In this document: piece after piece, positions 2,404 to 63,862 of the stretch
Layout of the letters: each line of letters opens with the position of its first letter
How positions within the stretch are numbered: position 1 is the first letter of the stretch
NCBI GenBank assembly: GCA_951406725.2
Contig: OX597818.1
Coordinates: 82,770,001 to 82,834,000 of the forward strand
Direction: 5' to 3'
DNA from: Octopus vulgaris
Taxonomy: Eukaryota
Length of the DNA stretch: 64,000 nucleotides
The notes under the pieces: generated by a model
Told to the model about the DNA's origin: nothing
Seen by the model: only the letters and a program-made list of their open reading frames with translations
The model's database searches: none
Position numbers and translations under genes: made by a program

Positions 2404-2603
2404 AGGGAGAGTTTACGAAAAAAACAAAAGACCAAGACAGCTGGTGTACAAAACAAACAGATGTATTAGTATAATGCTCAGGAATAGAAAGTATTTTACG
2501 TTTCGAGCCTACGCTCTTCTACAGAAAGGGACACAGAAAAAACAAACAAGGAGAGAAACAAGGAGAGAAAAAAAATGTGCGTAGTGGCTAACGACCTATC
2601 ATG
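2404..2603 (-). mobile_element. Short HHR-bearing element, family H2
   Basis: Similar to 62697-62882 (same strand) and 21596-21826 (opposite strand). 3' end abuts (TA)n. Confidence 0.75.
2494..2528 (-). ncRNA. Minimal type I hammerhead-like motif, CUGUAGA core
   Basis: Reverse complement reads ttt-CTGTAGA-A-GAGC-gtag-GCTC-GAAA-cg-TA-aaa. Confidence 0.55.
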
Positions 2604-4009
2604 TATATATGAGTGTGTGCAGTACTGCGTCTACGGATGCAGGATTTGATGTCTCAACAGGAGATGAGCAGCTCTGTTACTGTTTCGGCCGCTTTCACTT
2701 CGACACCAATTTCACTTCAAACACATTGGTCAGCCCTAGGCTTATAGTTGAAGGCACTTCCCCGAAGTGCTGTCGCACAATGAGACTGAACCCAAAACTA
2801 TGTGGTTGCAAGGAAACCTCTTAACCTAAACACTTGCCTTCACCTATTCTATGAAATCTTCGGCGAATACATTCTTGTCTGTGATATTTCCGTATCAGAC
2901 AGAGATAGGCTATTAGTTTAAATGAAAGGTTGTTATTATATATGAGACAATGAGTAAATACGGGGTATTACAAATTGCAATGGTCTCATTGCTGCTCAAG
3001 ACAGACTTTACGACTTCACTCAAGATCCAAGATTCCTCTTTAAGAGACTACATTTCATTTTAAACACCTGATGTAAGCTTCTTAAAAAGTCATAAAGATA
3101 CACTGCCGGATTTGCAACGATGTAGCTATCGCTCTGTTTATGCCATATCACTCCATAATCAACTTTTTCGATAGTGCTTCACAACGACGAGAAATACTTC
3201 ATCGTTTAAATGTTGAGCAACTGCTCTAATAACCAGCATAATACGATATAAGCTATGTGAGGCATCTTCTCGGGTCACACATACACAATATAATGAACAC
3301 ACATACACGTACACACACACATAATATCAACTCACATATACATACACACATATATGCTGATATACATTCATAAAAACATTTATATATATATATATATATA
3401 TATATATATATATATATATATATATATATATTCATATATTCCTACACATATATATATCTGTATATCTGCTGATAATGGATTGTTTCATTTCTCGAATAAA
3501 TGATGTATATGATTATGTAGGTGAAGTTATGTACACACGTGAAGGTAAATGTGTTGCGCTATGCAATTCTATAGTTCTTAAATAATATATATTTATCTAC
3601 CTATGCACAGTTATCGATATACGTTTATTAATTGGCTCTACAGGCTTATACTTACATATTTATTTCATATACACACACATGCACAAGCAGAAGCATACAC
3701 CGCAAACACAAAGACAAGCATGAATACGCACACGTTTATAGATGTACGTATGTGTATGTGTAATCATATGTTTATTTGTGTATGTGTGTAGTTATATAAT
3801 TATAAGCGATTCTGTATACGCATGTACGTCTGCTTGTATGTATACAGAAATAGACAGAGATCGAAAACGAGAGATATAATTATGTATTCGAACATGCATA
3901 CAATCTATTGATCATAATATTCTACGCCCACCGTTTACTTCCTAATTATTATAATCACAATCATCACCCTCATCAGCATCATCACCGAGACCATTAGCGG
4001 ATATACAAA

Positions 4010-4280
4010 ACTATATATATATATATATATATATATTTATACATACATGCATACATGCATGTATACCTATACACACACACACATATATATATATAATTAT
4101 ATATATGTATGTATGTAAAGATACATAAAGATGTATATATATGTATATATATATATATATATATATATATATATATATATATGTATATATATATATATAT
4201 ATATATATATATATATACACATACATACATATATATATATATATATATATATATATATATATATATATATATATATATAT
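4010..4280. repeat. Compound (TA)n microsatellite
   Basis: Directly visible. Representative of dozens of similar TA/CA/TACA tracts in the window. Confidence 0.95.
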
Positions 4281-4612
4281 CAGCACAGTATCATTAAACA
4301 CCCATTAACATAGAAATTGAAAATTCTGAGAAAGATTTCTAGCTTCCACGTATTTCGAAATGTCAGGGCAAAATGAAAAACCTCCATCGAAGCAAAAACA
4401 ACAATACCTACAACAAACAGACCAACAAATATTATACACAAGGTATAAAAGAAGATTATTGATTGGCTAACGAGACCGTATCTTCGTATTATACATAATA
4501 ATATACGTTTCTGAATCGATGAAATTAATAAAAATGGATCTTCGTCAGTTTCGACTATGATTATTCACGTTTACCAAAACATTATATTCTTAGACGCTTA
4601 TAATTATAAGCA

Positions 4613-5036
4613 CAGGCGTGGCTGTGCTGTAAAATGTTTGCGTCCCAAACACGTGGTTGCGGGTTCAGTCCCACTGCGTGGCACTTTGGGCACGTACCTT
4701 CTACTATACACTTGAGCCGACCAAAGCCCTGTGAGTGACAAAAACTGAAAGAAGTCCGTCGTATGTATATGCGATAGTGTACTGAAAAGTTCCTTGCTTT
4801 AAAGAATATATTGTATAATACCATGATTAATTTATCATATTGTACTTTTTGTACACGCGCGCTTGAAAACTGGTGCTGGTAACTGATAAGTTACTGGTAA
4901 CTGATAAGTTACGTATCTGTAACTTATCAGTTCGGCAAAAAGAAACTGATGCTATAAGTACCAGGCTTAAGGAAAAAAGTCCTGCGTCGATTAATTTGAC
5001 TAAGATTATTCATGGCTGTGCCCCACAGTGGCCGCA
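4613..5036 (+). mobile_element. Diverged SINE family A copy with internal insertion
   Basis: Head ggcgtggctgtgctgtaa...ggttcagtcccactgcgtggcac and tail ttcggcaaaaagaaactgat...gtggccgcag match the family. ~4770-4910 is unrelated sequence. Confidence 0.65.
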
Positions 5037-6505
5037 GATTCGTACTTTAGATGTGTTTGAGTATTCTGCGACTATGTGATCTGTTAACGTATTTATTAAC
5101 AAAGACAGCGCGACAGTGAGTGTTTGTGGCAAAGGGTAACGCTTTGAATAACAAGTTCAGTATAGCCAATGGCTATTCTCAGTTTTACGTCAGTTCAATT
5201 TTACTTACAAAACTGGGCTGGCCCTTAGCTGTGCTAAGCTGTACTTGCCAAAGAAGCAGCAAGTTGGAATCGAACCTACGGATCGGGATAACGAAGCAAG
5301 CATCCTTAAAGCTCCGGCATGACTACGTGTGCTTTTTATACATACACGCATATGTGCACAATTACACGCTCTCTCTTTCGCTGTTTCTCTGTCATACACA
5401 GAGGCTTGTATACGCATATGTGTAATATATACATATGTGCGTGCGTTAAATGTATACATGTATATGTATAGAATACATCAGTTGATGTAAATAATATGTA
5501 TAAGATGTCCATATGTTTATATATATATGTGTGCGTGTATGAGCATTTGTGTGTACATATATATTCATATATATATATATATATATATATATATATATAT
5601 ATATATATATATACATACATTGATACGTATATTTATTCTGTGTATGTATATTTTGTATATGATATATTTTAATGATTATAAAATCATACACATACACACA
5701 CACATATATATATATATACTTACACACGCACATACACATACACTAACATATATATATATATATATATATATATATATATATATACACACATGTACATATT
5801 TATATGGATACTTAAATCCCATAATGCGTGTCGATACATGTGCATACATACGTTCTTCCATAGACAAGCAGCGAAAAAAAAAAAAATAAAATGAAATATA
5901 ACCTGTACATCCCCCCACCAAAAAAACAAAACAAAACAAAAAAGCAAACAAATGGAACAAATCAAAGAACAAAAACCCAAACTAATGAAAACAAAAATCA
6001 AATCGAAAAAACAAAATCACTAGTCCTACTCGTTGCGATACTCATCTATGATATACCTATATATAAACATAGAGTGAACGCTGGAAAACATTTAGCTTGA
6101 GATTTTAATGTTAAATTCATCCGCAATTACATACTTTGCGTATGCATCTCTATTTGATTTAACATTCTTTTTCTTTTTCTATTTATCTATCTTACATTTC
6201 TGTCATTTATTATATACCTTGATATATTTATTTTACTATTTCATCATTTGTTATCTTACGTTTATCATTTACCCATTATCTCTAAAATCGCCATCTTTCA
6301 TTCATTTACATCTCTCATATCATCAAACTTTCTACGCCCCATCGATCTGTTTCATTTTGTAAAAGATCAAAGATAAATCTTTAAATCACTGTATTTTTGT
6401 TGGTAGTCAGTAAAGAGTGGTGGGTGTATAAAATGCTGGTGGAATAATATCTTCATGTATACCCACCAACCTACCGATCTAGATAAGAAAATATATTTAT
6501 ATTTC

Positions 6506-62050: not shown

Positions 62051-62696
62051 CTATATATCGTAAAATAACGAATACACTCAATTTAAAACCAAACAGGAAA
62101 AATTCAATTGTCACTAATTGTGACAGAGAGTTACGGGTAGCAACTATATTGCTAGAAATAAGAGTTAAGTCCCTTCGAAGGATTCTAAAAATCCTGACAA
62201 TATTTATGACCATACCCAACTATAAAACTGTCAACTCACTCCTGCTCTCAATTCTAAACAGACACTATCCTCTAGCTTTAGATTTAGTGGTTGATAAAAA
62301 AAAAGACTAGCAAATTAAAAACGCACCACAATCCTATTACAAGCTATGACCCTAACAAGCTTCTTACAGTTCTTATAAGTGTAATATATTCTTAGCTACA
62401 TTAGTAGCAACATGGTCACATTCCCTCTTCTTGCCCTATTAGAGAATTTGAGTAAAATTATATTAGAGTGTCCATCTGATTAGAAATTCTCTTTATTTAT
62501 GCAGCAAAAGATAGCCCTGCATTTAAATTGATGTAATGATTACATTGTTCAATTAAATGGAGTCGCTTGAATTGGTCGTATCACCTCTTGATATCCTGTT
62601 CCTTATTTAGATTATATATATATATATATATATATATATATATATATATATATACATATATATATATATATATATATATATATATATATTATATAT

Positions 62697-62882
62697 AGGG
62701 AGAATTCACAAAACGCAATAGACGAAGACAAGTGGTGCAGACAACAAACAGATGTATTAGTATAACGCTCGGGAAGTGAAAAGTCTTTAACGTTTCGAGC
62801 CTACGCTCTTCCACAGAAAGGAACACTGAAAGAAACAAGGAGAGAAAATAAAGAATGTGTAATGGCTAGCGATCTATTATGG
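62697..62882 (-). mobile_element. Short HHR-bearing element, family H2
   Basis: Similar to 2404-2603. HHR-like fold at 62785-62820 (cttt-CTGTGGA-A-GAGC-gtag-GCTC-GAAA-cg-TT-aaag). 3' end abuts (TA)n. Confidence 0.75.
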
Positions 62883-62934
62883 GGAATGATATATATACAT
62901 ATACGTATTGTTTTACTAAAGAAAAGGTATACCT

Positions 62935-63673
62935 TTCTCTCTTTTATCTCTTACTTGTTTCAGTCATTAGGCTGCGCCAACACGGGGCCACCTCTATGAA
63001 GAATTTTAGTCAGATGAATTGACTTAAGTTCTTATTTTTATCTTAAGCCTCGTTCTCATTCTGTTAGGCTGCTTTTGTTGAACCGCTAAGTTATGAAGAC
63101 GTAAACACTGCAACGCCGGTGGTAAAGCAGTGGAAAAGGGGTCCAACACTGATACAAAGACACACATACACACTTACACACAAGCATTTATATAGGTCCC
63201 TTTTACAGCCATACACATATGCTCACACAAAGTTGAAGCGCTGTTTGATTTTTTTTTCACCGTACAATTTCCATCATGCGCTCGGATTCATAAGGAGGCG
63301 TACAAATGACTGAGATTGCTTATCCTCTTACTAAAGTGTACACTGGTCTATAGGAAGGATACTTGCATGTGTAACTGAAATCAATATAGCCATAGAGATC
63401 ACCGTTGATAAGAAAATTATCTAAGTTATAAAGACGCAGACACTGCAACGCCGGTTGTAAAGCGGTGGGGATTGGGGACAAACACAGATACAAAGACACA
63501 CATACACACGCGGCGTGCTTCTTTCAGTTTCTGTCTACCAAATCTACTCACAAGGCTTTGGTCTGTTCGAGGCTATAGTAGAAAACACACGCCCAAAGTG
63601 TAACACAATGAGACTGAACCCGGAAGCATGTGGTTGGGAAGCAAACTTGAAGCTACTCAACCGCGCCTGCGCC
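62935..63673 (-). mobile_element. SINE family A pieces with partial duplication
   Basis: ctaagttat...aagacg...acactgcaacgccggt appears at ~63086 and ~63421. The head ends at ~63673. Confidence 0.75.
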
Positions 63674-63694
63674 TATATATAACTAAACTTATAT

Positions 63695-63862
63695 AGTTCT
63701 GTATTTTAGAGATGAGGAATTATGTACATTATTTACATTATTTACATTATTTATATTCGACGGATATTTGTCCTCATCTTGTTGGAAGGTATATCAGCCG
63801 AAACGCTGTGTTAACAACAAACAAGATGAGGACAAATATCCGTCGAATGTAAATAATGTAAA
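63695..63862. mobile_element. Internally deleted fold-back copy of element H1
   Basis: Starts like 27093 (ttctgtatt..agagatgaggaattatg). ttcgacggatatttgtcctcatcttgtt pairs with aacaagatgaggacaaatatccgtcgaa. Retains CAGCC-GAAACG. Confidence 0.8.

Follow-up and report, generated by a model that had tools for sequence, protein, structure and literature searches.

The window considered here is a 64,000-nt stretch of the Octopus vulgaris genome (assembly GCA_951406725.2, contig OX597818.1, positions 82,770,001 to 82,834,000 of the forward strand), and coordinates are counted from its first letter. The assembly around it comprises 2.8 Gb in 227 contigs and is rich in microsatellites. The window contains copies of four families of short repeats, designated H1 to H4, each associated with a hammerhead ribozyme motif. 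A previous interpretation made from the letters alone (the sequence-only reading) had connected these elements with Penelope-like elements (PLEs), which encode a reverse transcriptase (RT) and a GIY-YIG endonuclease, and all of the elements were found where it had located them. Window repeats were defined by self-BLAST, the output of a repeat finder being dominated by microsatellites, and the family motifs were read from copies across the genome and not from the window copies alone. An Rfam search of the window (E<=5, 404 matches) returned no hammerhead among the 150 matches listed, which were microsatellite-driven.

The consensus motifs of the four families agree with the common architecture originally proposed. 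All are type I, with a stem I of 4-7 bp, a stem II, one extra base after position 9, a G10.1-C11.1 pair and a palindromic stem III (ACGU in H1 and H2, AAUAUU in H3 and ACUGAAUUUAGU in H4). The motifs are CUGAUGA-A-GGCUG/CAGCC-GAA-ACGU-U in H1, CUGUNGA-A-GAGC/GCUC-GAA-ACGU-A/U in H2, GUGAACA-G-GUCGC/GCGAC-GAA-AAUAUU-U in H3 and CUGAUGA-U-GGCUG/CAGCC-GAA-ACUGAAUUUAGU-A in H4. The conserved core (CUGANGA/GAAA, or its U3-A8 form) is present in H1 and H4 but not in H3, where the 3-8 pair is G3-C8, or in H2, where position 6 is U. Of the four families described as sequence-unrelated, H1 and H4 have the same stem II. The term minimal hammerhead suits H1 to H3, with their very short palindromic stem III, but not H4, in which the palindromic stem III has 4 bp and a loop as a monomer. 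Dimers were predicted to be favored by 2.7-13.3 kcal/mol, and hammerhead-type stem III pairing appeared only in the H3 and H4 dimer folds.

The abundance of the motif was assessed with a descriptor drawn up after the motifs had been seen. The descriptor gave four matches in the window, as against averages of 0-0.05 over 180 local Markov shuffles; three of these are family members (21665, 62816, and 53995) and the fourth, at 12047, is probably a chance match. In 60 evenly spread 10-kb pieces of the genome (600 kb), eight matches were obtained compared with 0-1 in eight shuffles, seven of them belonging to H1-H3 and one being an H2-like motif with a canonical core; versions of the descriptor with 0 or 2 extra bases instead of one gave 1 and 0 matches, respectively, in the same 600 kb. 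Exact patterns, each paired with a reversed-pattern control, were counted across the genome and gave 3,375 copies of H1, 18,345 of H2, 4,343 of H3 and 56 of a young H4 subfamily, with 0 matches to each control. Only three copies in the window are intact, the others having decayed: stem II is broken at the H1 cores 27220 and 27614, the H3 core at 44777 carries a G12 to A change and that at 51209 an insertion in GAA, and stem I of the H2 core at 2524 is reduced to 3 bp.

Three copies of H2 are present, at 2405..2603 (minus strand; core CUGUAGA at 2524, with U6), 21590..21792 (plus strand; core CUGUUGA at 21665) and 62696..62888 (minus strand; core CUGUGGA at 62816, with the fold intact). The 3' end adjoins (TA)n in the first and third copies, and in the second it is followed by a short duplication and then by (TA)15 at 21827. 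The 2405 copy is the 3' tip of a Neptune-type PLE. The parent element was found at locus L438, where an open frame of 1214 codons contains an RT domain (RVT_1, E 1.7e-7, above the Pfam cut-off), a CX4CXXC linker and, at the C terminus, a GIY-YIG motif that scores below the Pfam cut-off; this parentage is based on one full locus (L438) together with L181 and L271/L272. A CUGUUGA hammerhead lies in both direct repeats flanking L438 (pseudo-long terminal repeats, pseudo-LTRs), and each of these ends shares 92.6% identity with the window copy at 21590. Identity is 99-100% across the 150 copies of the L438 GIY-YIG sequence that were scored. The C-terminal position of GIY-YIG ruled out assignment of H2 as a Naiad end.

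The U6 state is characteristic of H2 as a family. A6 was found in just 221 of the 18,345 pattern matches; a hand count of the first 100 matches gave U6 in 95, with all four bases at N7. A canonical A6 subfamily was considered improbable, the 221 matches being scattered, with a mixed N7 that fits sporadic mutation. When copies were picked by the downstream flank alone, U6 was present in 26/26 anchored copies (29 were found; the set includes four re-fetched BLAST picks, the three window copies and one chimeric anchor), and N7 and H17 differed by subfamily. Mean conservation over 25 of these copies, with the chimeric row removed, was 0.93 in the 37-nt motif versus 0.76 upstream and 0.86 downstream. 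TA was found after the 3' end of H2 at 20 of the 30 loci, compared with ~10% in the background.

H3 occurs twice. The sequence-only reading had described inverted pairs of both H1 and H3, listing H3 at 44596 and 51182; inverted pairs do exist in both families, but these two H3 copies are separate insertions of different subfamilies (92% alike), and the true pair is the insertion at 44601..44949. Here, 44601-44799 on the minus strand has a long 3' end and a GUGAACA core at 44777 that has lost G12, and 44851-44949 on the plus strand has a short end. The pair is flanked by a duplication of ~12 bp at a target that is not TA, an exception to the proposed (TA)n adjacency, which was borne out for H2, for H4 and for the second H3 copy. 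The latter (51187..51396, plus strand; core GUGAACA, G3-C8, at 51209) is the 3' tip of a Neptune-type PLE with a (TA)n run on each side. At locus L172 the order is GIY-YIG frame, 3' untranslated region (UTR), H3 and (TA)n, and when loci were picked by the parent GIY-YIG protein, 29 of the best 30 carried GUGAACA ~1 kb downstream of it. The parent at L215 has an open frame of 1025 codons with YVDD, a CX3CXXC linker and a GIY-YIG domain above the Pfam cut-off, and its RT was identified by the YVDD motif and by a BLAST match to L438 (E 7e-9).

The swap of the 3-8 pair to G3-C8 is shared by the 4,343 exact copies, and loop 2 differs between subfamilies. Motifs with the H3 stems and C3-G8 or U3-G8 gave 12 matches, and the 10 that were fetched consisted of six from an older short-loop family and four mutated H3 copies. 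A sister family has CUGAAGA (C3-G8) with a compensatory stem II pair (149 matches), and in one of 10 fetched loci its GIY-YIG sequence is 38-54% identical to that of the H3 parent. TA adjoins the H3 3' end in ~27 of the 30 top loci (counted by eye), and 10 of the 13 inverted pairs listed combine a long and a short end. Assignment of H3 as the tip of a 727-aa element at L048 was ruled out, that element belonging to a Hydra-clade family that has a hammerhead of its own. At L048 and L121, a single insertion between two TA runs joins the H3 tip head-to-head with a GIY-YIG fragment of the Hydra clade, a candidate cross-family template switch; L048 hints that mixing of templates between families is possible.

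H4 is represented by a 242-bp piece (53981..54222, plus strand) with an intact canonical hammerhead (core 53995), a 3' end at the short site and TA on both sides. This element had been described as single-copy; 934 candidates and 56 exact hammerhead copies were found in the genome. The piece derives from a 512-nt unit repeated in tandem with a 512-bp period, in which copies are 97-100% alike and arms reach >3.6 units. No PLE protein match was found in the units of the examined loci, no open frame was seen in H4 or H1, and Rfam gave no match to the H4 unit. Judged from this organization, H4 is a non-coding tandem non-LTR retrozyme. Its insertions were compared at 30 loci chosen by similarity, of which 11 are single-armed and one is cut off, and which include the duplicates L020/L021. 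The 3' ends lie at unit position ~13 or ~106; these two sites are rich in UA and adjoin (TA)n. The 5' ends are scattered round the entire unit. All 18 inverted insertions with both ends visible use one of each 3' site, an outcome with a probability of ~4e-6 under independent 50:50 use of the two sites. Base-pair exchanges in the motif include a compensatory C-G to U-A change in stem II (5 of 50 motifs) and a G-U/A-U exchange in stem III (11). The predicted minimum free energy of the circular unit is -134 kcal/mol (z -5.7, 40 shuffles), and that of the opposite strand is low too (z -7.3).

H1 has a different makeup. Its first insertion consists of an inverted arm with a long 3' end and a decayed hammerhead (27094..27265, minus strand; core 27220), a head with A-box/B-box-like motifs that are putatively tRNA-like (27263..27332, plus strand), an internal (AAT)n/(AAC)n spacer (27334..27543, plus strand) and a tail with a second decayed hammerhead (27558..27707, plus strand; core 27614) and a short 3' end; the outer ends share a 7-bp match. 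The second insertion (63692..63862) is a truncated inverted pair, formed by 63692-63791 on the minus strand (long end) and 63783-63862 on the plus strand (short end), and lacks the CUGAUGA core box; its flanks are alike over ~13 bp with one mismatch. Copies of H1 run from the head with its A/B-box-like motifs through (AAT)n to the hammerhead and a 3' end that has neither poly(A) nor a repeat tail. An A/B-box pattern was flagged in 13 of 30 pattern-picked loci, and just 1 of 30 has TA after the 3' end. Of 60 loci, 38 carry an inverted arm (three insertions being counted twice), 36 of these 38 combine long and short 3' ends, and 9-13-bp matches interpreted as target-site duplications flank 17 of the 38. 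H1 is likely a tRNA-headed short interspersed element (SINE) with a hammerhead tail and no coding capacity. Several H1 copies (L105, L112, L115, and L117) contain the same ~550-bp piece inside the (AAT)n spacer, upstream of the tail, and this is possibly an (AAT)n-targeting long interspersed element (LINE). A LINE-like frame was also seen near H1 at L116.

What was observed directly is that H2 and H3 are linked to intact frames, that 5' ends are ragged and 3' ends lie at two fixed positions, that insertions form inverted pairs and that H2-H4 target TA. It is considered very probable that H2 and H3 are truncated tips of intact Neptune-type PLEs, that H1 and H4 are non-coding and likely copied by PLEs, and that the four families were left by Penelope-like retrotransposition. 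The proposed mechanism is drawn from these insertion footprints and from the biochemistry of PAc, the Poseidon element of Anolis, in which both target strands are nicked and two internal RT starts match the genomic tail (Frangieh et al. 2024, PMC11167929). The GIY-YIG domain would nick both strands of (TA)n or an AT-rich target, and RT would start internally on its RNA template, at two fixed sites that lie ~35-95 nt apart downstream of the hammerhead, with one PLE complex presumably priming both target strands. Use of one start site per strand would generate an inverted pair whose arms differ in their 3' ends, one being long and the other short. If synthesis mostly ends early, only the hammerhead-bearing tip remains and copies resemble mini-elements; the high density of such elements would then arise because 5' truncation leaves the tip where the hammerhead sits. 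The RNAs of H1 and H4 would be copied in trans by PLE enzymes. With their canonical cores, H1 and H4 would cut as dimers, and H4 perhaps as a monomer too, releasing unit-length RNA. The G3-C8 core of H3 and the U6 core of H2 are predicted to be slowed and probably protein-assisted cutters, in which cleavage would not be rate-limiting for insertion. The hammerhead fold itself is likely maintained by selection on master copies.

Several observations weigh against parts of this interpretation. The putatively tRNA-derived H1 head was recognized by its box-like motifs, and no tRNA was detected in H1 by ARAGORN (window) or by Rfam (L101). No autonomous partner with an H1 or H4 3' end was found in a small search of three parent proteins against 120 loci and of the family DNA against 30 GIY-YIG loci. 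For H3, Pfam RVT_1 gave no match to the L215 parent, and none of the four longest loci retrieved has an upstream direct repeat (0/4), three of them containing inverted truncated copies. For H2, the mixed origin of the flank-picked copies bears on the fixation of U6, and conservation in loop 2 equals that of the core, so that the conservation indicates constraint on the motif and not on catalysis. The A6C change is strongly deleterious in Mg2+ (PMC7151607), and cutting in Mg2+ is weak for cores that carry A6C naturally (PMC3088659, PMC7151607). Because of this weak cutting, U6 in H2 is possibly very slow or dead, and H2 may be a ribozyme family without any cleavage.

These observations bear on two accounts of the variant cores. 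In the first, which is offered tentatively and falls short of an even prospect, PLEs would tune the hammerhead down: young intact families of one genome would use three forms of the 3-8 pair and a U6 core, each of them selected, and the protein would gate a ribozyme that works slowly as a switch. Both G3-C8 and U6 would then count as natural hammerhead cores of a new kind. A tRNA-headed SINE and a 512-nt RNA circle would depend on these same enzymes, which would use two fixed start sites on a single RNA to copy the two strands of the target. In the other, which is judged doubtful, the variant cores would be dead as ribozymes and the fold would be kept as an RNA signal for the PLE protein or by hitch-hiking, cleavage being dispensable. 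In vitro, PAc insertion is normal in catalytic mutants, and RNA-seq gave no reads ending where cleavage would occur (PMC11167929); Naiads are successful although they lack canonical hammerheads (PMC8557442), and U6 is fixed in the young and highly successful H2 family. These points are in keeping with dead cores, but H2 variation is confined to N7 and H17, positions that are free in catalysis, and the 3-8 pair is Watson-Crick in all three forms met in this genome (C-G, U-A, and G-C).

The remaining alternatives concern the origin of the elements. The view taken in the sequence-only reading, that all four families are non-autonomous ribozyme mini-elements of one system, fits H1 and H4, in which no open frame was seen and for which no coding partner was found in the loci examined, and most H2 and H3 copies are indeed only ~200 bp long. 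It is nevertheless highly improbable for the set as a whole, since H2 and H3 run upstream into intact RT/GIY-YIG frames of autonomous PLEs and their copies end raggedly on the 5' side, by truncation or at an inversion junction; these same frames uphold the link to PLEs drawn in that reading. H1 could instead be an ordinary LINE-driven SINE that captured a PLE fragment, as its tRNA-like head, its 9-13-bp target duplications and the lack of a PLE partner in the loci examined might suggest. This is regarded as improbable in view of the head-to-head inverted rows, 36 of 38 with the long and short 3' ends that constitute a PLE tail signature (PMC8557442), and the 3' end without poly(A) or a repeat tail. 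Chance matches in AT-rich, low-complexity DNA would be consistent with the failure of most window copies under the strict descriptor and with the match at 12047; this explanation is given negligible weight against the excess over shuffles in both the window and the 600-kb sample, the thousands of exact matches with none to the reversed patterns, and the compensatory changes.

The four families can be compared with known systems. The minimal PLE hammerheads described by Cervera and de la Pena (2014, PMC4209133) include a U3-A8 variant, have low activity in vitro and share with H1-H3 the type I topology, the extra base between 9 and 10.1, G10.1-C11.1 and palindromic 15.2-16.2/loop 3 sequences; the architecture shared by H1-H3 is therefore not new. 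That study also describes many unrelated families per genome, mostly as single truncated copies, as in octopus, and opposite-strand pairs 100-700 bp apart. Family-wide G3-C8 and U6 are not among the variants in the sections of it that were compared. Neptune-clade endonuclease-containing (EN+) PLEs have an RT followed by a CX2-5CXXC linker and, C-terminally, GIY-YIG, and PLE insertions have a tail at one end, quoted as 30-40 nt (Craig et al. 2021, PMC8557442). The H2 and H3 parents have the same order in one frame and also resemble Neptune PLEs in their inverted 5'-truncated copies, one-end tail and microsatellite targeting, and in the direct repeats of the H2 parent; they differ in their variant hammerhead cores and in the ~60-nt tail of H3. 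Their placement in Neptune rather than Nematis is a putative assignment by motifs.

The PAc hammerhead is protein-assisted, its activity is partly rescued by C3G/G8C, and insertion in vitro can do without its cleavage (PMC11167929); G3-C8 is a laboratory double mutant in PAc and the natural state of the young autonomous H3 family. H4 resembles metazoan non-LTR retrozymes (PMC7229834; bioRxiv 10.64898/2026.07.22.740005) in being a non-coding tandem with one type I hammerhead per unit, in being strongly self-paired as a predicted circle and in sharing a genome with PLEs, on which such retrozymes have been argued to depend (bioRxiv 10.64898/2026.07.22.740005). Its 512-nt unit lies above one published range (150-450, PMC7229834) and inside the other (51-972, bioRxiv 10.64898/2026.07.22.740005), and it differs in its (TA)n targeting, its paired fixed 3' ends and the distribution of 5' ends all round the unit. 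The SM-alpha-type hammerhead SINE-like repeats of schistosomes (PMC6765202) combine a promoter of the RNA polymerase III type with a hammerhead, as H1 would with its putative boxes; H1 differs in being dispersed rather than tandem and in forming PLE-style inverted pairs with target duplications. No natural family-wide G3-C8 or U6 core, PLE-style tRNA-headed SINE or report of these octopus families was found in the literature searched, a comparison that did not extend to Lunse et al. 2017, the Cervera 2014 supplements or Repbase/Dfam. The sequence-only reading had raised core variants as a question, naming neither G3-C8, U6, the tRNA-like head of H1 nor the 512-nt tandem unit of H4.

The value of H2 and H3 lies in a natural experiment on the role of PLE hammerheads, in two young autonomous families with intact proteins. 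Laboratory work predicts that G3-C8 is slowed and that a change at position 6 is badly impaired, and H3 has a canonical-core sister for comparison; the combination of variant cores, intact proteins and the H3 sister family makes cleavage and its role in insertion directly testable. The paired ends of H4 provide a clean genomic footprint of PLE enzymes copying a non-coding tandem or circular RNA, and H1, if correctly interpreted, would show that SINEs parasitize PLEs as well as LINEs.

Further hammerhead-like motifs, PLEs and other repeats are present in the window and elsewhere in the genome. A 5'-truncated Neptune-type remnant (45614..46270, plus strand) comprises a GIY-YIG coding piece, a 3' UTR, a degenerate hammerhead-like motif and (TA)n. 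Its motif at 46123 reads UUGAAAA (U3-A8 type) ... GAA ACCGGU; a second degenerate motif, with an AUGCAU stem III, lies at 40673..40705 (plus strand), and both had been recognized earlier. Most of the loci L412-L437 belong to an abundant Neptune-type family of 781 codons with a 3' hammerhead of the U3-A8 type, apparently without the extra base after A9. A young, intact Hydra-clade PLE (L168:3160-5343, minus strand; 727 codons, with RWK and DKT, no CCHH, and 1.1-kb direct repeats) has a canonical-core hammerhead in which stem II is very short and stem III is palindromic, and its TA-joined ends are ~70 nt apart. Beside the H3 insertion, ~44452-44580 (minus strand) has an apparent resemblance to a copy derived from 5S ribosomal RNA. 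Self-BLAST also revealed two or three further families of abundant dispersed repeats, probably SINEs, with copies at 23607-24026, 39683-40112, 49983-50491, 52520-52949, and 61286-62050, and at 7842-8207, 22409-23012, and 27768-28519.

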